A stretch of DNA of 14,663 nucleotides from an uncultured Methanosarcinales archaeon (GCA_964647565.1 CAZYIM010000050.1:1-14663), one strand, 5' to 3'; positions 7,511 through 14,366 are shown, numbered from the stretch's first letter. Made by a program: numbers and translations. Notes: a model not told the origin generated them from the letters alone.

Positions 7511-8203
7511 ATGAAAATCGTCCTAAAGAAAAAGCCTAAAAACGCAACAATCATCGAAGGATTCCCTGGTTTTGGGTTAATTGGTACAATTGCAACAGAG
7601 TTTCTTATTGAACATTTAAAGCCAGAACTAATTGGAGAGTTCATATATGATGAACTTCCTCCTACTGTCGCCATCCATAAAGGTGAACTTGTCAGACCAA
7701 TGGCTGTATTCTATGATAAAAAACATAATCTGGTGATTCTACACACCATCCTCAATACAAAAGGAAATGAATGGAGTGTGGCAAATGAAATAGTGAACAT
7801 GGCTAAAGAACTGGAGGCTAAAGAGATCATAAGCATAGAAGGTGTAGCGACAGCCCAGCAGAAACCAAAAGACATCACAGTCTACTACTATGGAGAGCCT
7901 AAGTTCAAGGATTTAGGTCTAAAGCCGGTAGATGAGAGCATCATCATGGGAGTCACTTCTGCAGTCATGCTCAAATTCGATAAGATGAAGTGCTTGTTTG
8001 CAGAAACCAATCTAGGCCTCCCAGATAGTAAGGCTGCTGCCAAGATAGTCGAGATTCTAAACTCCTACCTGGGACTGAAAATCAATACAGATCCTCTACT
8101 CAAACAAGCTGCAGAATTTGAGGGCAAGATCAAAACGATATTGAAGCAGAGTACAGACACAGTTGATACTGCCAACAAAAAGAACCTTAGCTATTTGGGA
8201 TGA
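7511..8203 (+). CDS. PAC2 family protein (proteasome assembly chaperone homologue)
   Basis: 'IIEGFPGFGLIGTIATEFLIEHL', 'LPPTVAIH.G....P', 'IISIEG', 'IMGVTSA', 'LFAET..GLPDSKAAAKIVEIL', C-terminal YLG. Confidence 0.88.
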   Translation: MKIVLKKKPKNATIIEGFPGFGLIGTIATEFLIEHLKPELIGEFIYDELPPTVAIHKGELVRPMAVFYDKKHNLVILHTILNTKGNEWSVANEIVNMAKELEAKEIISIEGVATAQQKPKDITVYYYGEPKFKDLGLKPVDESIIMGVTSAVMLKFDKMKCLFAETNLGLPDSKAAAKIVEILNSYLGLKINTDPLLKQAAEFEGKIKTILKQSTDTVDTANKKNLSYLG

Positions 8204-8748
8204 AGGAACTTATTTTTATTACTGGAAACAAGCACAAGTTAGAGGAAGTACAGGATATTCTGAAAGACTACAAGATTATTCAGGAGAATATAGACCTGCC
8301 AGAGATCCAGGAACTAGACGCTGAAAAGGTTATGTTCGAGAAGATGAAGGTAGCCGAAAAAAAAATCAAAAAACCCTTCTTTATTGAAGATACCTGTTTC
8401 TGTGTTGATGCCTGGAATGGACTTCCAGGTCCACTGATTAAATGGTTTATGGAAACTGTTAAACCACCCGGCATCCATAAAATGCTATCTGCTTATGAAA
8501 ACAAGAAAGCCAGAGGTATTTGCACAATAGGATATAAAGAACCAGGAAAGAAAGCGGTTTTTTTTACAGGTGAAATACCGGGACAAGTAGTCAGCGAAGC
8601 AGGCTCTGAAAGGTTTTACTGGGACAGGATATTCATACCAGAAGGCCAAAAAAGAAGATTCTCTGAGATGACCATTGAAGAGAAAAACAAGATAAGTCAC
8701 AGAACCAAGGCAGTACTAAAATTTAAACAGTTCTTAGAAAAAAATTAA
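8200..8748 (+). CDS. rdgB: Non-canonical purine NTP pyrophosphatase (Ham1/RdgB, ITP/XTP pyrophosphatase)
   Basis: 'FITGNKHKLEE', 'LPEIQE', 'IEDT', 'GLPGPLIKWF', 'FYWDRIF', 'EEKNKISHR'. ATGA overlap with the PAC2 gene. Confidence 0.93.
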   Translation: MKELIFITGNKHKLEEVQDILKDYKIIQENIDLPEIQELDAEKVMFEKMKVAEKKIKKPFFIEDTCFCVDAWNGLPGPLIKWFMETVKPPGIHKMLSAYENKKARGICTIGYKEPGKKAVFFTGEIPGQVVSEAGSERFYWDRIFIPEGQKRRFSEMTIEEKNKISHRTKAVLKFKQFLEKN

Positions 8749-8749
8749 C

Positions 8750-8763
8750 AAAAACTTTATTAA
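8750..8763 (+). promoter_or_regulatory. BRE/TATA promoter of pyrH (leaderless)
   Basis: AAAAAC followed by TTTATTAA (8756-8763), 22 nt before ATG 8786. Confidence 0.5.
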
Positions 8764-8785
8764 TGTCTCTTCAACAGTTTTTTTT

Positions 8786-9469
8786 ATGACCAAGGAAACC
8801 ATTGTTATAAGTGTTGGAGGATCTTTGATTGTGCCTGAAGAGGTGGATTATCAATTTCTAAAGAAGTTCAAGGAGATCATCCAAAAAGAGATCCGCAAGG
8901 GGAAAAGGTTCATCCTTGTTGCGGGCGGCGGCAAGACCTGCCGGAAGTACCAGGCAGCTGCTGAAAAAGTCAGCATGCTGACTCAGGAGGATATGGATTG
9001 GCTTGGTATCCATGTAACAAGGCTTAATGCTCATCTTTTGAGAACCATTTTTAGAAAGATTTCACATGCAGAAGTCATTACCAATCCACATCACAAGGTA
9101 AATTTTGATGAACCTATTCTTATTGCAGCTGGCTGGAGGCCAGGATGCAGCACAGATTATGATGCTGTCCTATTGGCCAAGAACTATGGAGTAAAAAAAG
9201 TCATCAACCTAAGCAATATGGATTATGCGTATGACACGGATCCAAAAAAATTCAAGAATGCTAAGATTGTTAAAAAGATATCCTGGGAGGGTTTTCGAAA
9301 GATTGTTGGCAGTGAGTGGAAACCAGGTATGAATGTCATCTTTGATCCAATTGCCAGCAAAGAAGCTGAAGCATTTGATATGACCGTAATTATTGCTAAT
9401 GGCAAAAAACTGAAGAATTTTGAAAATATTCTCGAAAACAAGAAATTTATTGGGACAGTCATCAATTGA
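8786..9469 (+). CDS. pyrH: Uridylate (UMP) kinase, archaeal type
   Basis: 'VISVGGSLI', 'VAGGGKTCRKYQ', 'DWLGIHVTRLNA', 'GWRPGCSTDYDAVLLA', 'YDTDPKK', 'FDPIASK'. Confidence 0.95.
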   Translation: MTKETIVISVGGSLIVPEEVDYQFLKKFKEIIQKEIRKGKRFILVAGGGKTCRKYQAAAEKVSMLTQEDMDWLGIHVTRLNAHLLRTIFRKISHAEVITNPHHKVNFDEPILIAAGWRPGCSTDYDAVLLAKNYGVKKVINLSNMDYAYDTDPKKFKNAKIVKKISWEGFRKIVGSEWKPGMNVIFDPIASKEAEAFDMTVIIANGKKLKNFENILENKKFIGTVIN

Positions 9470-10514
9470 TATCTTCTTGCACTATTTCTGGAAAGTATGT
9501 AAATTTAAACTCCTCGTTTGCAATCATGGTTTCATAGTTGGTTATCTCACCAGGAAACAATTGCCTTAAGCTGTATAGAGTGGAATGTAATTCCTCTGTT
9601 TTTTTAACACACAGATAAGCCACCAGATTAAATCTGCCAATGCTCTTAACTGCCCAAAGAACATTTTCATCGGTCGAAAGAAACTCCCTCAATTTCATCT
9701 CTTTTTTTCCCTGAAGATTCTCTATATTCAATAAGATCGTATATATCGAATAACCAATGGAGGCAAAGTTAATTACAGGAACAAATCTTAATATCAGACC
9801 TTTTTTTAATAAGTTTTTCAACCTATAGACCACTGCATCTGCAGACAATCCAATTTTCTCTGCTATCTGATAATTTTTTATCTCTGCATTATTAGCAATC
9901 AGGCTTATTATTTCCAGGTCCATTTCATCATATTTATCTTTATTTTTACTTACATTGTAAGTATAATCATCTTGTTTAATCATACTTACATTGTAAGTAT
10001 CAACATGTGCATCAGAAAAGAAACTCCTTGGTAAAACTCTACCAACAAAACCTTTACTAATAGTACAAATCTCATAATTCTGTACATTAGAAGAACAGGC
10101 AGAAAGGATCAATCCCATGTAAGTGTCAAATTCCTTCACAGATTTTGCAATCAGAGCGACCTCCAGATCATATCTGCCCTGAAATTTAAGGACAGCTCTA
10201 ACAAAGGGCAGTTTCACTAACTTATCAATAATTTCAGATTCAACTTCTTTTGCAGGATTATGCAATTGCAGAAACAGATGGTAGACATCATAGCCAAGTT
10301 TGGTGATGTCCACCACTGTTCTGTATCCCTGAATAACACCTCTTTTTTCAAAATTGATTATCCTGTAACCAACTGAGTCTCTGGACAATTGAGTTCTCTT
10401 TGCAACTTGTGTTGAGGGGGTTCTCGAATTCTTAGAAAGCTCACAAAGAATCTTTCTGTCCTTCATATCAAGGGCTACAGCAGAATCACTGGTCTGTCGC
10501 TGTACATACTTCAT
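9462..10514 (-). CDS. Tandem (two-domain) Lrp/AsnC-family transcriptional regulator
   Basis: Two wHTH+RAM units: 'DMKDRKILCELSKNSRTPSTQVAKRTQLSRDSVGYRI...GVI....D..KLGY' and 'DEMDLEIISLIANNAEIKNYQIAEKIGLSADAVVYRLKNL.KKGLI...N..SIGY', each followed by 'GRY/FDL'-type RAM strands. ATG 10514 fits the TATA spacing; ATG 10523 is an alternative. Confidence 0.9.
   Translation of the reverse strand: MKYVQRQTSDSAVALDMKDRKILCELSKNSRTPSTQVAKRTQLSRDSVGYRIINFEKRGVIQGYRTVVDITKLGYDVYHLFLQLHNPAKEVESEIIDKLVKLPFVRAVLKFQGRYDLEVALIAKSVKEFDTYMGLILSACSSNVQNYEICTISKGFVGRVLPRSFFSDAHVDTYNVSMIKQDDYTYNVSKNKDKYDEMDLEIISLIANNAEIKNYQIAEKIGLSADAVVYRLKNLLKKGLILRFVPVINFASIGYSIYTILLNIENLQGKKEMKLREFLSTDENVLWAVKSIGRFNLVAYLCVKKTEELHSTLYSLRQLFPGEITNYETMIANEEFKFTYFPEIVQEDIN
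9947..10000. repeat. Two exact 18-nt direct repeats (period 36), each a palindrome
   Basis: TACTTACATTGTAAGTAT at 9947-9964 and 9983-10000. Core is TACTTACA-T-TGTAAGTA. Encodes TYNVS twice in the Lrp interdomain linker. Confidence 0.9.
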
Positions 10515-10536
10515 TTCCCACATAAAACAAAAATAC

Positions 10537-10615
10537 TTTAAATAATTTTCGGATTATTTGGATTTTTCTGTAAAAACTTTCTAATAATTCTTATGACATA
10601 TATACTAATAGGTGA
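10537..10615. promoter_or_regulatory. Divergent promoter region between the Lrp gene and the HD-rSAM operon, with an inverted repeat
   Basis: Minus-strand TTTAAA box at 10537-10542. Inverted repeat AAATAAT-N6-ATTATTT at 10540-10559. Plus-strand AAAAAC then TTTCTAAT (10578-10585, non-consensus TATA). SD GGTGA at 10611-10615. Confidence 0.5.
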
Positions 10616-10620
10616 AAAAA

Positions 10621-11253
10621 ATGAGAGAAACAAAACAAACCCTTCGAAAAATCATCTTGGATGCATATGAGAAAGCACCGCAAAAAGAGTACCACAACTG
10701 GAACCACATCTTAGATGTTGTGACAACAGTCAAACAACTCGGAAAAAGCGAAGGTGTAGGAAGCAAGATATTGTACATAGCAGAAATAAGCGCCTATTAC
10801 CACGATGTTATCCACCACAACTCACCAGACGATGAAAAGCTCAGTGCAGATTATGCCTACAAAAAAGTGCAGCAATATGGATTAACTGAGCCTGAAGCTA
10901 TGCTTATAGGTAACACCATAAAAGCTACAAATGTGAAAACGCAGCCCAACAACATACTCGAAAGAATAATCAGGGATGCAGATGTGGCTAATTTCGGCAG
11001 AAAGGATTTCATGGAAAAAAACGAGCTTGTACGCCTAGAGCTGAATTTTGAAAAAGATTTGAACTGGTACCAAAATACCCTTAAATTACTCGAAGGTCAT
11101 CAGTTCTACACCCAATCTGCGCGACAGCTTTACACTGAAGGTCTTAAAAAAAATATCCACAAAGTTGAAAAAAAACTGGAGGTGTTTAGCAAATGCGACA
11201 GAAAAGAAAGCTACTTGTTGCAGGCTGGTCATTCACAAGCAAGTGCAACCTAA
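10621..11253 (+). CDS. HD-superfamily metal-dependent phosphohydrolase (YHN..H / HD / DAD, phosphodiesterase-like subtype)
   Basis: 'EYHNWNHILDV', 'SAYYHDV', 'DEKLSA', 'IKAT', 'IIRDADVANFG', 'RLE....W....LLEGHQFYT'. ATG 10621 follows SD GGTGA; GTG 10612 is part of that SD. Confidence 0.85.
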   Translation: MRETKQTLRKIILDAYEKAPQKEYHNWNHILDVVTTVKQLGKSEGVGSKILYIAEISAYYHDVIHHNSPDDEKLSADYAYKKVQQYGLTEPEAMLIGNTIKATNVKTQPNNILERIIRDADVANFGRKDFMEKNELVRLELNFEKDLNWYQNTLKLLEGHQFYTQSARQLYTEGLKKNIHKVEKKLEVFSKCDRKESYLLQAGHSQASAT

Positions 11254-12218
11254 AATGTAAACACTGCTACAATGCATCAGGAAAAAGTAAATCAGATGAG
11301 TTAACATTCGAGCAAGCCAAAAAGGTAGCTCAAAAGCTGGTTGATTACAGTGTAGCCGCAGTGAACTTTGGTGGAGGCGAATGCCCCCTTAGAACTGACT
11401 TTCCAAAAATTTGTAAGCTCTTGCACGAGGGAGGGGTAAAGCTATCTCTGACCACAAACGGCCTACCTTACAAAGAAGTTGCCAAGTATATGCATCTTTT
11501 CCATGATATTGGCGTCTCAATTGATTTTGCAGACGAGAAAAGACAAGACTGGTTCAGGGGAATAAAAGGCGCATATAAGTTAGCTTGTAAAGCAGCCAGG
11601 TTCTTTGCAAAGCAAGGAATTGATACAGAGATTGTTACATGCATCACCAAACTTAATTGCAATCCAAAAGAACTTAAGAAAATTTACGAGCTTGCCAAAA
11701 AGCTTGGAGTCAACCATTGGCGGCTTAACAGATACAGGCCCACAGGAAGAAAAGAGATTCAGGATCTGTTAAAGCTTGAACCCAGCGATATCAAACTAGC
11801 GTATAGCTTCCTGGATAAGCTGATAAGAAAAGATTTTGTTATTCCTGATCCCTTATTTGCCAATTTTGGTAGAAAAGTAGCAGCCTGCCCTTCAGGAAAG
11901 ACCAGTTTTAGAATAATGTCCAATGGAGAGGTTAGTCCAGATGTTTATCTGAAGATCTCAGGAGGCAACATACTCAAAAAAGACATTGATGATATCCGGG
12001 ATTCAGATATATTCAGGGCAATAAGAAACAGGGACTTGAAGGGCACCAAATGCGAAGTATGCCAACATCTAAAAACCTGTCAGGGCGGTTGCGCTGGCTC
12101 TGCTTTCCTGGCTTATGGAACCTTTGACAAGCCAGATCCTCTCTGTTGGAACGAACCCAAATGGAATGTACATGAGAAATACCTATGCACAGCATATGTA
12201 CCGCTGTTTGAAACGTGA
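11193..12218 (+). CDS. Radical SAM protein with SPASM domain (PqqE/MftC/AhbD-like group)
   Basis: CNLKCKHC (CX3CX2C), GGGE, TTNG, VSID. C-terminal CPSG...GEVSPD and CEVCQHLKTCQGGC...PDPLC. Strong SD GGAGGTG at 11178-11184 inside the HD gene. Confidence 0.9.
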   Translation: MRQKRKLLVAGWSFTSKCNLKCKHCYNASGKSKSDELTFEQAKKVAQKLVDYSVAAVNFGGGECPLRTDFPKICKLLHEGGVKLSLTTNGLPYKEVAKYMHLFHDIGVSIDFADEKRQDWFRGIKGAYKLACKAARFFAKQGIDTEIVTCITKLNCNPKELKKIYELAKKLGVNHWRLNRYRPTGRKEIQDLLKLEPSDIKLAYSFLDKLIRKDFVIPDPLFANFGRKVAACPSGKTSFRIMSNGEVSPDVYLKISGGNILKKDIDDIRDSDIFRAIRNRDLKGTKCEVCQHLKTCQGGCAGSAFLAYGTFDKPDPLCWNEPKWNVHEKYLCTAYVPLFET

Positions 12219-13237
12219 TAAAGATGGAACTCAATATAAAAAAATTAGATCTTAACATCACCAATAGATGCAACTACAGGTGCGTCCATTGCTGCTTTGA
12301 TTCAGGCATAAAGAACATGGAAGAGTTATCTTACGATGAGATAGAAAGAGTCCTAACAGATGCTAGAGAATTGGGTGTAAAGCGTATTGATGTAACAGGC
12401 GGAGAAACTCTGGTAAGGAAGGATTTGGAACAAATACTCAAGAAAGGAAAAGAGCTTGGTTTTAGAATTGAACTCCTGACCAATGGATCTCTGCTAACCA
12501 AAGAAAAACTGCTTAGGTTCAAGGAAATTGGTCTGGATGCCTTAGGCATTAGTCTTGACGGCTCAATCCATGAAATATACAAGAACATCAGGGGACAGAC
12601 TCCAAAAACATTCAAAAGAGTAGTTGAGAACATCAAGCTATGCAAGGACTTGGGCTTCTATACCAAGGTCAACACAGTCGTCTTCGAGAGCAATATCAAC
12701 GATATTCCCAGTATCACCCAACTTTGCATTGATTTGGAAATTGATGAACACGGCATCTATTACTTTACACCCATTGGAAGAGGTAAGAGCAACAGCAATC
12801 TGGTTGTGCATCCACTTGATTGGCTTGAATTGGCAAAAAGAGAGCTAAGTCAATACAAAGACAAAATGAAATTATCAATAGAGCTGGCCTATGCAAATTC
12901 AAATAATTGCAATGGTGCAAAGACCAAGTGTTTTATTCAGGATCCCCACCACCTCCAGATATTACCAAACGGAAATGTCTATCCATGCGCCATCATGGCA
13001 GCATATGAAAAACCTCTTGGCAACCTCAGAGAAAGGTCTTTGAAAGAAATATGGCATGATGGTGCTGGATGGGATCGATACAGGAAAAATATTGAACACG
13101 TAATGGCAAGACATAATGGCTGTGTGGATTATTCAGCCTGCTTCCCAGATTCCCAGAAATACCAATTCATCTGTCCATGCAGAAAATTCTCAATTGATGA
13201 GGTATTTAGAAATGAAAGGGAGGTTTGTAGTTTGTGA
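12215..13237 (+). CDS. Radical SAM protein with twitch/atypical SPASM domain
   Basis: CNYRCVHCC, TGGE, LTNG, ISLDG, twitch-like 'CF...LQILPNGNVYPC...LGN', and extra C-terminal Cys (GC, AC, CPC). Start is GTG 12215 (GTGA overlap) or ATG 12224. Confidence 0.9.
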   Translation: MIKMELNIKKLDLNITNRCNYRCVHCCFDSGIKNMEELSYDEIERVLTDARELGVKRIDVTGGETLVRKDLEQILKKGKELGFRIELLTNGSLLTKEKLLRFKEIGLDALGISLDGSIHEIYKNIRGQTPKTFKRVVENIKLCKDLGFYTKVNTVVFESNINDIPSITQLCIDLEIDEHGIYYFTPIGRGKSNSNLVVHPLDWLELAKRELSQYKDKMKLSIELAYANSNNCNGAKTKCFIQDPHHLQILPNGNVYPCAIMAAYEKPLGNLRERSLKEIWHDGAGWDRYRKNIEHVMARHNGCVDYSACFPDSQKYQFICPCRKFSIDEVFRNEREVCSL

Positions 13238-13781
13238 AGGTTTGGATGCATCAGGTAAAACCACCACTATCAAGGGCCTGATCAAGAAAAATCACGAACT
13301 GCTCTATTCAAAAGGTCTCAAATCAAAAACCCTTTTCGGCAGGATTTCCGGTTTATTTCCAAACACCCTGACCTTCCTGTTAGAATTCGCATACATCTCC
13401 CAAAAATATATTATCCCTGCACTCAAGTCAGGTAAGACCGTCATCCAGGACAGGTATATTGAATCTGTAATCACATACGGACCTGTTGTCGATCGTTGGC
13501 ATAACCAACTAGCAATAAAAGCCATCAAACCTAGGCTGGCCAAGCCCGATGTGGTTGTCTATTTCACAGTATCAAAAGAAGAACGAGTTAAAAGATTAAA
13601 GGAAAGCATGGAAAATCGCTATCATAGGCAGTTGATAGAGAATCCAGAACAGATCGATGACAGGCTTGAAAGGTACAATGTACTATTAGATAAATACTCC
13701 AACAAACAAGTGATTAATACTACAAAACTGAGTATAAAGGAAAGCTGCAACAAGTTAGATGAGATAGTAAAAGCAAATTAA
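13212..13781 (+). CDS. Thymidylate-kinase-like P-loop nucleoside monophosphate kinase
   Basis: 'FVVCEGLDASGKTT' P-loop, 'IIPALKSGKTVIQDRYIES', 'KPDVVVYFTVS.EER..RL'. True start is probably ATG 13212 (SD GAGGT 13199-13203), not 13116. Confidence 0.85.
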   Translation: MKGRFVVCEGLDASGKTTTIKGLIKKNHELLYSKGLKSKTLFGRISGLFPNTLTFLLEFAYISQKYIIPALKSGKTVIQDRYIESVITYGPVVDRWHNQLAIKAIKPRLAKPDVVVYFTVSKEERVKRLKESMENRYHRQLIENPEQIDDRLERYNVLLDKYSNKQVINTTKLSIKESCNKLDEIVKAN

Positions 13782-13799: not shown

Positions 13800-14366
13800 T
13801 TACTTAGCCAATAATCTATAAACAGCACCTGCTGCACAACCCAGGCCAAATGCAATAGCTGTTTTTTTTCCAGTTCTAAGCAGACCAGTCTTCATTTGGT
13901 TCTTAAGCCAGGAAGGATCATAAGAAGTTGCTTCTATTGATTCCAGCATAGTTTTAGCAGATTCAGATCGATCAGAATATGCGTTTAAATCTTTCATAAA
14001 ACTAGAATTATTGTTCATTATCTTATTCAATTTCTGGATTTTTTTAGAAACCATATATTTACTGGACAATCCTACAGCAGGAGGACCTAAAGTCATTGCA
14101 GCACTATAACCTATTGGTAGTGGATTTCCAGAGCCAATCATAAAGCCAGCTGTAGCCGCAGGCCCAAAAAAAACAAGGTTACCTAAACCAGTACCAAATT
14201 TCTCAGTTATGTTCCCCACAATCTTCTGTGCAGAAGACTTTTTACCCTTAACATCAGTAATCACTTTCACTAGGATTGTATCAATAAATCTATCCGAAGT
14301 ATAAGTATAATCCGTGTGATTCGCCGCCATCAGTGGTTTTTCAGGAATTTGAAAATTTCGATTCAT
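13800..14366 (-). CDS. Hypothetical membrane-associated protein
   Basis: 188-aa ORF with SD GAGGTGA (14371-14377) and BRE/TATA CCGAAACA-TTTAAATA (14405-14420). Gly/Ala-rich hydrophobic hairpin in the middle and a hydrophobic C-terminal helix. Confidence 0.72.
   Translation of the reverse strand: MNRNFQIPEKPLMAANHTDYTYTSDRFIDTILVKVITDVKGKKSSAQKIVGNITEKFGTGLGNLVFFGPAATAGFMIGSGNPLPIGYSAAMTLGPPAVGLSSKYMVSKKIQKLNKIMNNNSSFMKDLNAYSDRSESAKTMLESIEATSYDPSWLKNQMKTGLLRTGKKTAIAFGLGCAAGAVYRLLAK

Follow-up and report, generated by a model that had tools for sequence, protein, structure and literature searches.

The window, the complete 14,663-bp contig C50 of archaeal assembly G000 (uncultured Methanosarcinales archaeon, GCA_964647565.1), contains a compact operon coding for an HD phosphohydrolase, two radical S-adenosylmethionine (SAM) enzymes, here called rSAM1 and rSAM2, and a Tmk-family protein resembling nucleoside monophosphate (NMP) kinases. 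It lies divergent from a gene for a tandem Lrp/AsnC-type regulator (Table 1). The gene set and its order recur in other genomes, and we see an even chance that the operon encodes an undescribed radical SAM pathway that, in general terms, tailors a nucleotide. Any exact order of steps, and any particular role in defence, antagonism or signalling, is put forward with far less confidence.

The five open reading frames (ORFs) lie where the original prediction, made from the sequence by itself, had placed them. The overlaps it gave between consecutive operon genes (61, 4 and 26 nucleotides) hold if the longest ORFs are taken together with a kinase start at ATG 13212. Of the Shine-Dalgarno sites that it saw embedded in the upstream genes, those of rSAM1 (GGAGGTG, 9 nucleotides upstream of the ATG) and of the kinase (GAGGT, 8 nucleotides upstream of ATG 13212) are present; rSAM2 may instead start at ATG 12224, which would abolish its 4-nucleotide overlap. 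For the HD phosphohydrolase, ATG 10621 is a more likely start than GTG 10612, because it is preceded by a Shine-Dalgarno-like AGGTG. Convergent genes bound the unit on either side, as had been described.

Table 1. Features of the operon, its regulator and the adjoining genes (window coordinates).
Feature	Position	Strand	Remarks
Archaeal-type pyrH (UMP kinase)	8786-9469	+	Pfam/NCBIfam; convergent with the Lrp gene
Tandem Lrp/AsnC-type regulator	9462-10523	-	353 aa; Pfam, two HTH_AsnC-type/HTH_24 stretches; divergent from the operon
Predicted control region	10536-10590		TATA-like boxes TTTAAAT... and ...TTTCTAATAAT flank a TTTCGG...ATTTTT segment; 14-locus alignment
HD phosphohydrolase (YpgQ-like/PDE-like)	10612-11253, likely ATG 10621	+	Pfam HD 27.5 bits (cut-off 22)
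rSAM1	11193-12218	+	Pfam Radical_SAM 72 bits, SPASM 26 bits
rSAM2	12215-13237	+	Pfam Radical_SAM 106 bits, SPASM 40.9 bits
Tmk-family NMP-kinase-like protein	13116/13212-13781	+	Pfam Thymidylate_kin 55.7 bits; 189 aa from ATG 13212
ORF without family match	13800-14366	-	188 aa; convergent with the kinase gene

Conservation of the gene set in other genomes

rSAM1 is the best conserved of the module's genes. At E ≤ 1e-20 its homologues fall into 197 clusters, of which the best 120 are 47%–67% identical to it, with source names that include Woese-, Pace-, Nano- and Aenigmatarchaeota. With a profile of 31 rSAM1 homologues, 26 loci were retrieved from species-representative genomes; the window proteins were compared with the ORFs of these loci by BLAST, and unusual ORFs were assigned with Pfam. 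An rSAM2 orthologue adjoins rSAM1 in 22 of the 26 loci and a Tmk-family gene lies downstream in 21 (17 at E ≤ 1e-20 and four weaker). The tandem regulator is divergent upstream in 18, its orthologues being 31%–48% identical, and the HD phosphohydrolase is found in 14, once as an N-terminal fusion to rSAM1. All five genes occur in the order of the window in 11 loci, and several others are truncated by contig ends (L027, L034). The fusion, a 550-residue protein in locus L045, is the only one seen: a search for longer fused forms yielded one weak match for rSAM1 and none for the kinase.

A reciprocal scan of metagenomes with a kinase profile gave 80 loci. In the six best (E ≤ 2e-29) rSAM2 always adjoins the kinase; four of the six also have rSAM1, and L047 and L048 contain the whole set. 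The remaining 74 have a generic Tmk at E ≥ 1e-15 or no kinase match at E ≤ 1e-4, so that nothing scores between E 2e-29 and E 1e-15, a gap that sets the module kinases apart from generic Tmks. The original prediction had staked its reading on the genes co-occurring elsewhere; they do so when searched from either end of the operon, and this recurrence makes the arrangement more than a product of chance. No conserved fifth gene was found after the kinase in the related loci. Distribution within the phylum is patchy: of 301 evenly sampled genomes, seven, the window's own included, have an rSAM1 orthologue (E ≤ 1e-60).

In variant loci, rSAM2 or the HD phosphohydrolase is replaced by NUDIX, HAD, PfkB, nucleoside phosphorylase, amidohydrolase or B12-dependent radical SAM proteins. 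rSAM1 is accompanied by HAD, nucleoside phosphorylase, Tmk-like kinase and NUDIX proteins in L041, by an amidohydrolase, a B12-dependent radical SAM protein, a Tmk-like kinase and a NUDIX protein in L026, and by another radical SAM protein, a PfkB kinase and B12-dependent radical SAM proteins in L040. The phosphorylase and the amidohydrolase are nearest to methylthioadenosine (MTA) phosphorylase and to 5'-deoxyadenosine/MTA deaminase, both well under the cut-off.

Some individual loci deviate in other ways. The contig with the HD-rSAM1 fusion is labelled as a Gammaproteobacteria metagenome-assembled genome and also carries an rSAM2-like gene, a TrmB-type regulator and a bacterial DnaN, which reflects either a transfer to a bacterium or a problem of binning or labelling. 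In L034 (2786-3828) two separate ORFs make up the rSAM2 orthologue, and an rSAM1 match in genome G210 (C7:98891-99940) contains one in-frame TGA; these may be instances of decay, sequencing error or recoding.

The radical SAM enzymes

rSAM1 starts at its CX3CX2C motif (invariant Cys18, Cys22 and Cys25), without an N-terminal RRE, and has five further invariant cysteines (Cys287, Cys290, Cys296, Cys318 and Cys332). In rSAM2, Cys19, Cys23 and Cys26 are invariant, as are Cys239, Cys258 and Cys320, with Cys303 present in at least 90% of 19 orthologues. The SPASM motif has seven cysteines (CX9-15GX4C ... CX2CX5CX3C ... C). Both proteins pass the Pfam SPASM threshold; only five (rSAM1) and three to four (rSAM2) C-terminal cysteines are conserved, so that one auxiliary cluster per enzyme, as in twitch-like domains, appears as likely as two.

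Neither enzyme falls in a characterised family, both scoring far under every NCBIfam cut-off. The best models for rSAM1 are GeoRSP (151 bits, cut-off 400), mycofactocin (137, cut-off 265) and AhbD (136, cut-off 500), and those for rSAM2 are PqqE (147, cut-off 381), NirJ2 (138, cut-off 500) and MoaA (121, cut-off 325). By profile, the nearest solved relative of rSAM1 is SkfB (E 1e-27), followed by CteB, PqqE, anSME and BlsE; the fold matches of its predicted model (pLDDT 87.4) are all generic SPASM/twitch enzymes, namely SuiB, SkfB, CteB, BlsE, PqqE and anSME. rSAM2 is nearest to MoaA (2e-19), BlsE (8e-16) and GDGT-MAS (1e-15). These matches settle the fold class of the two enzymes, not their substrates.

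Two specific identities were considered and rejected. The viperin model NF038283, with a cut-off of 180 bits, gives 68.2 for rSAM1 and 89.6 for rSAM2, matching over model positions 3-201 only, and the PADLOC pVip models likewise match residues 8-206 only. For the MoaA models TIGR02668 and TIGR02666 (cut-offs 325 and 284), rSAM2 scores 121 and 110 bits and rSAM1 65 and 59.

The HD phosphohydrolase

The HD protein passes the Pfam threshold (Table 1), and its His28, His32, His64, Asp65, Asp122 and Asp124, corresponding to the H...HD...D metal ligands, are invariant in 15 orthologues. Its family profile matches the structures 2pq7, 3djb and YpgQ (5dqv) at E 6e-9 to 3e-8, and also many class-I cyclic nucleoside monophosphate (cNMP) phosphodiesterases over the N-terminal motif. 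The predicted model (pLDDT 94.7) has ADP-bound YpgQ as its top fold match (TMq 0.61-0.64), followed at similar TMq by the catalytic domains of PDE2, PDE5 and PDE10. YpgQ hydrolyses (d)NTPs at a mononuclear Mn site and is described in PMC8177086 as an NTP pyrophosphohydrolase.

Against 1.84 billion representative sequences, the HD profile gave 1,421 matches at E ≤ 1e-30; 29 of the best 150 are longer than 400 residues. When 20 of these best 150 were analysed with Pfam, 12 had a class-III cyclase domain and three a cNMP-binding domain beside the HD domain. In the matches P0203-P0270, the HD domain stands at the C-terminus of bacterial-type proteins of 500-1550 residues, with class-III cyclase, STAND/TPR, PAS, Reg_prop or cNMP-binding domains as partners. 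In a quick tree of 65 rows, the HDs fused to cyclase or cNMP-binding domains form a clade (SH-aLRT 100) among poorly resolved module HDs. The fused proteins may be a clade of HD-type cyclic-nucleotide phosphodiesterases, and since the nearest multidomain relatives have such domains, cyclic-nucleotide phosphodiesterase activity is a live alternative to NTP pyrophosphohydrolysis as the predicted function of the window protein. Both reactions give a nucleoside 5'-monophosphate, the substrate class of an NMP kinase. No class-III cyclase was found in the host genome, and the HD protein has no match in PADLOC-DB 2.0. A prediction of a complex between rSAM1 and the HD protein, run without controls, scored 0.00, a value on which we place no weight.

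Among 60 relatives of the same order, four genomes contain homologues of the HD protein, all distant; in two of them (G004 and G008) a tandem Lrp is again divergent from the HD homologue. In G004 (L020 6032-7776) and in L029 (11476-13384), a PPAT-DPCK (CoaD-CoaE-like) fusion gene is followed by an ORF of about 200-230 residues. The G004 ORF is the distant HD homologue, and the L029 pair lies just downstream of the module.

The kinase

The kinase is a member of the Thymidylate_kin superfamily (PF02223, 55.7 bits for a cut-off of 27). Glu9, Gly10, Asp12, Gly15, Lys16 and Thr17 of the P-loop (EGxDxxGKT), Asp80-Arg81 of the DR motif and Arg128 are invariant in 18 orthologues; the DR motif varies at its third residue. 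Of the 38 chains listed as solved relatives for its profile, the 32 at E ≤ 1e-5 are all thymidylate kinases, and in PADLOC it matches PDC-M51B (1e-15) and the viperin-associated VakA (3e-11).

The original prediction was to fall if this were the genome's only, vertically inherited dTMP kinase; it is not the only Tmk-family gene. The host has four Tmk-family genes above the Pfam cut-off, one of which, on contig C13, lies beside ThyX and dCMP deaminase genes and is likely the housekeeping enzyme. At least two Tmk-family genes are present in four of five other module-bearing genomes, including high-scoring canonical ones elsewhere in the genome. A tree was made of 60 Tmk-family proteins, taking the first 30 generic matches and leaving out L047, which did not pass a length/X filter. 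In it, 23 module kinases and a kinase from host contig C45 form one clade (support 97/92), and this clade, with four variant-locus kinases and one metagenome row, is split from 29 generic Tmks and the C13 and C29 kinases at 100/99. The C45, C13 and C29 proteins have long branches, which makes their placement unsure. The module kinase is not the housekeeping Tmk.

The other three host genes have neighbourhoods of their own. On C13 (L015, 5234-8725), the Tmk adjoins a double-length ThyX (521 residues, two Thy1 stretches) and a 342-residue fusion of a P-loop kinase-like domain with dCMP deaminase. The C45 locus (L013, 10776-16403) encodes an NrtR-type NUDIX regulator, a NUDIX protein, a 370-residue GTP-cyclohydrolase-II-like protein, a 284-residue radical SAM protein, a Tmk/dNK-like kinase 35% identical to that of the window, a PRAI-like protein and a 413-residue protein without assignment. 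This is likely a prokaryotic viperin locus: along its entire length, its radical SAM protein matches the PADLOC pVip model 'viperins associated with kinases' (E 4e-38), but it scores 121 bits, under the cut-off of 180, with the NCBIfam viperin model. On C29 (L014, 5784-15485), ten genes on one strand code for a sugar-1-phosphate nucleotidyltransferase, a Tmk-like kinase, a cytidylyl/adenylyltransferase-like protein, a radical SAM protein, a radical SAM/SPASM protein, a NUDIX protein, a radical SAM protein, a histidine phosphatase, a radical SAM/SPASM protein (spiro-SPASM-like) and a B12-dependent radical SAM protein; the cluster looks like a pathway for tailoring a nucleotide sugar or nucleoside.

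The regulator and its control region

The tandem regulator contains two copies of an AsnC-type HTH followed by a ligand-binding (RAM) domain, as in the Lrp/AsnC family, and DNA binding is predicted for it. The HTH_AsnC-type match amounts to 64 bits in two stretches; that to AsnC_trans_reg is weak (18.7 bits). Alignments with solved Lrps cover residues 12-157 and 197-317, and the best of these relatives are DNA-binding Pyrococcus Lrp/FL11-type regulators (E 1e-10).

When the 14 intergenic regions between the Lrp and HD genes were aligned, 13 columns were invariant and 15 nearly so, unlike the proteins of the same loci, which are merely 30%–50% identical. The TTTCGG...ATTTTT segment is a likely candidate for the Lrp operator, with the flanking TATA-like boxes as putative promoters. 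Because of the DNA-binding relatives and the conserved intergenic region, we predict the tandem Lrp to be the dedicated regulator of the operon. As in the original prediction, the genes are read here as a self-contained operon, under the control of the Lrp. A scan for sigma-70 promoters and terminators, which gave 11 sites where 14.8 were expected, is uninformative for an archaeon.

The host genome has nine further tandem-Lrp paralogues, each at most 35% identical to that of the window; the ten genes, the window's included, code for two-unit proteins of about 305-363 residues and are spread over several contigs. The one on C44, 35% identical, has a NirDL-like HTH match.

A possible pathway and its alternatives

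In the pathway that we propose, which takes its sequence of steps from the order of the genes, the HD phosphohydrolase would yield a nucleoside 5'-monophosphate, from a triphosphate if it is YpgQ-like or from a cyclic or esterified nucleotide if it is PDE-like. rSAM1, coupled with the HD protein, would perform a first 5'-deoxyadenosyl-radical step, and rSAM2, with its MoaA/BlsE-like core, a second. The Tmk-family kinase would phosphorylate the modified monophosphate to the diphosphate, from which general kinases would make the triphosphate, and the tandem Lrp would set expression by binding the conserved operator between the divergent promoters. The product would be a non-canonical nucleotide that acts either as an analogue with antiviral or antagonistic effect or as a signalling molecule. 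In favour of nucleotide tailoring we count the invariant catalytic residues in all four enzymes and the presence of two other clusters combining kinase, radical SAM and NUDIX genes, on C45 and C29, in the same host. The kinase clade, the HD family and the partner genes in variant loci point to nucleotides. The nucleotide-modification system of the original prediction is supported, and none of the outcomes that it named as refuting was found; we infer the nucleotide substrate, the product, the order of steps, the chemistry and the biological role.

Several observations weigh against this proposal. By sequence and by fold, the nearest solved relatives of rSAM1 are modifiers of peptides or proteins (SkfB, SuiB, CteB, PqqE and anSME). 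With the dTMP kinase model TIGR00041, the kinase scores 59.7 bits, under the cut-off of 83.25, and we take it to lack the usual base-binding motifs; for these two reasons a non-nucleotide substrate is conceivable. The HD gene is absent from 12 of the 26 loci and is therefore not essential to the core chemistry. In the variant loci, the phosphorylase and the amidohydrolase may merely remove the by-product of the radical SAM reaction, in which case they are uninformative on the substrate. A defensive role in particular is disfavoured by the flanks of 11 long loci (128 ORFs), which comprise varied housekeeping genes, among them those for ribosomal proteins, aminoacyl-tRNA synthetases, PCNA, ribonucleotide reductase, RuBisCO and CDC48, share no common context and contain defence-like domains only in isolation. 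On viral contigs, the rSAM1 profile confirmed none of 27 candidate stretches. Given its presence in seven of 301 genomes, these varied flanks and the lack of a viral-contig relative, the module behaves as a portable accessory unit, neither a core set nor a typical resident of defence islands.

The relatives of rSAM1 make it necessary to consider that the radical SAM enzymes cross-link or oxidise a peptide or housekeeping protein whose gene lies elsewhere, as in a pathway for ribosomally synthesized and post-translationally modified peptides (RiPPs) or with a maturase, the HD protein and kinase being accessory. Besides the profile and fold matches to SkfB, CteB, PqqE, anSME and SuiB, and the GeoRSP, mycofactocin and PqqE maturases at the top of the NCBIfam matches, this reading can draw on a distant homologue (31% identity) on a Patescibacteria contig alongside PqqD. 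It can also draw on three related loci (L024 6738-7619, L037 8996-9811 and L043 3946-4857) in which a mutually homologous ORF of 270-300 residues is inserted between rSAM1 and rSAM2. The inserted ORFs weakly resemble cyclodipeptide synthases (Pfam 26.4 bits, cut-off 27; PDB profile E 0.02 and 0.06), and if the likeness is real, these variants may use aminoacyl-tRNA. We nevertheless regard peptide modification as quite improbable. As the original prediction had stated, the unit lacks a precursor peptide, PqqD/RRE, protease and exporter: no PqqD/RRE, protease or transporter domain was found among its proteins with Pfam and NCBIfam, the overlaps leave no space for a peptide gene between the genes, and none of these elements, nor any extra small gene, is conserved in the related loci. 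Membership among RiPP maturases was rejected on these grounds. Furthermore, rSAM1 begins directly at its CX3CX2C motif, all scores are far under the maturase cut-offs, and the constant partners are a Tmk-family kinase and nucleotide hydrolases. That the kinase instead phosphorylates a non-nucleotide small molecule (a sugar phosphate, cofactor precursor or lipid head group) from which the HD protein removes phosphate would fit its sub-threshold dTMP kinase score, the unconserved third residue of its DR motif, the likeness of rSAM2 to GDGT-MAS and BlsE, the PfkB sugar kinase in one variant locus, and the host's islands of radical SAM genes with glycosyltransferase, lipid and sulfotransferase genes. 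Such a substrate is unlikely in view of the solved relatives of the kinase, all thymidylate kinases, and those of the HD protein, all nucleotide-acting, with NUDIX replacing HD in variant loci.

The combination of an HD protein that converts NTP or cNMP to NMP with an NMP kinase could also be seen as a recycling pair, by which damaged or unusual nucleotides, imported or formed inside the cell, are returned to usable (d)NDPs. The description of YpgQ as an NTP pyrophosphohydrolase (PMC8177086), the Ham1/RdgB and UMP kinase genes nearby in the window, and the MTA-phosphorylase-like and deaminase-like genes of variant loci all suit this explanation. Yet two radical SAM enzymes would be costly for salvage, a function all genomes would need although only seven of 301 have the module, and neither Ham1 nor pyrH is conserved beside other loci; we consider house-cleaning distinctly unlikely. 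Far less probable still, and rejected here, is an Ahb/NirJ-like tetrapyrrole pathway, in which the tandem Lrp would be a fused AhbA/B-type decarboxylase and the radical SAM enzymes analogues of AhbC and AhbD. The AhbD, NirJ2 and AhbC models do match both enzymes at E 1e-29 to 1e-40, the AhbA/B models match the Lrp protein at E 6e-8, and one rSAM1 homologue bears the source name 'Fe-coproporphyrin III synthase'; these scores are 101-138 bits for cut-offs of 500-650 with AhbC, AhbD and NirJ, and 32.6 and 32.1 bits for cut-offs of 125 and 140 with NF040707 and NF040708. The Lrp protein matches no AhbA/B chain at E ≤ 1e-3, its relatives are DNA-binding, an operator-like conserved region precedes its gene, and the kinase and HD protein would be left without a role. 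In the host genome, which is 87% complete, neither HemB nor HemC turned up in a search that was positive in 11 of 14 control genomes.

Comparison with known systems

That no described system has this composition, as the original prediction held, agrees with a literature search, which found no description of the gene set. With PADLOC-DB 2.0, no complete defence system was found in the unit, only the single matches of the kinase to PDC-M51B and VakA and of the radical SAM cores to pVip.

Viperin with its CMPK2/VakA-type kinase is similar in linking a radical SAM enzyme to a Tmk-superfamily kinase, a genetic linkage documented in bioRxiv 10.1101/2023.09.13.557418. The module kinase matches VakA and groups in one clade with that encoded directly after the viperin-like protein on C45 of the same genome. 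Unlike viperin loci, the module has two non-viperin radical SAM enzymes, each with an auxiliary Fe-S domain, as well as an HD protein and a dedicated Lrp, and it lies outside defence islands.

The oxetanocin A pathway pairs an HD phosphohydrolase with a radical SAM enzyme acting on a nucleotide. Its OxsA and OxsB act as a complex, and the HD-rSAM1 fusion in one genome hints at comparably close coupling. To our knowledge the pathway has no Tmk-like kinase and no second radical SAM enzyme. OxsB is cobalamin-dependent, in contrast to rSAM1 and rSAM2, which have SPASM/twitch domains and no B12 domain. The HD protein of the window is nearest to YpgQ, although only about 20% identical to it, and OxsA, named as the HD phosphohydrolase of the oxetanocin pathway in PMC8177086, is not among the matches listed. 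With YpgQ it shares the H...HD...D ligands, the profile matches and the best fold match; from the cyclase- and cNMP-fused HDs it differs in being a single domain inside a radical SAM operon.

For phages that modify their DNA at the dNMP level, PMC13326640 describes cognate dNMP kinases and a dCTP pyrophosphatase. The three-part logic is the one seen in the gene order of the module: an NTP-to-NMP hydrolase, modifying enzymes and a dedicated NMP kinase. The phage modifiers are ThyA-like hydroxymethylases rather than radical SAM enzymes and the phage hydrolases of the MazG or dUTPase type rather than HD-type; the module is chromosomal in archaea, with none found on viral contigs. rSAM2 has its closest solved relatives in MoaA (GTP 3',8-cyclase) and BlsE (cytosylglucuronate decarboxylase), which use a nucleotide or nucleoside substrate and have one auxiliary cluster, comparable to the four-cysteine twitch-like set of rSAM2. 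rSAM2 is nonetheless distinct, with 121 bits for TIGR02668 (cut-off 325) and 75 for the BlsE model (cut-off 400), over the N-terminal 170 residues only.

Neighbouring genes and the host genome

At the convergent end of the Lrp gene, positions 7511-9469 of the window encode a PAC2 proteasome-assembly chaperone, a Ham1/RdgB ITP/XTP pyrophosphatase and the archaeal UMP kinase on the same strand; the PAC2 and Ham1/RdgB genes overlap by 4 nucleotides, and the end of pyrH overlaps the Lrp gene by 8. These neighbours are not kept beside the module elsewhere, Ham1 being near one of the 26 loci. The ORF at the other end has a hydrophobic middle rich in glycine and alanine; searches of Pfam, NCBIfam, PADLOC and PHROGs gave no family for it, and the related loci lack a homologue.

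The original prediction had presumed an archaeon of reduced metabolism, a description that the host does not fit. Its assembly is 2.68 Mb in 86 contigs, 87% complete with 1.9% contamination, and is larger than all sampled order-level relatives (0.6-2.1 Mb). The genome is rich in radical SAM genes, with 44 SPASM matches at E ≤ 0.01, 42 of them above the cut-off. Contigs C12, C13 and C17 (loci L127 and L128) contain long arrays of SPASM and B12-dependent radical SAM genes, interspersed with genes for PMT_2 glycosyltransferase, LPG_synthase_TM, arylsulfotransferase, GDSL lipase, aldo-keto reductase and GcpE.

Implications

Radical SAM enzymes with free nucleotides as substrates have supplied chain terminators against viruses (viperin), cofactors (MoaA) and nucleoside drugs (oxetanocin). 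The module described here is a compact, conserved set of four enzymes with its own regulator and putative operator, whose radical SAM proteins lie outside any curated family. A more specific and doubtful possibility is that it constitutes a second nucleotide-analogue pathway, independent of viperin, in which two radical SAM enzymes with auxiliary clusters would produce a previously unseen nucleotide, possibly cyclised or altered in its ring. The PDE-like HD protein would feed or quench this pathway, the kinase would activate the product and the Lrp would act as sensor, and DPANN archaea might direct the nucleotide at viruses or competitors, or signal to their hosts with it.

The host shows that a member of a small-genome archaeal order is able to hold dozens of Fe-S radical enzymes. 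The organisms that carry the module are archaea that cannot yet be cultivated alone, and it is small enough for heterologous expression. If nucleotide tailoring is the correct reading, its product would extend the known chemistry of nucleotides and might be an immune or signalling molecule of a new kind.

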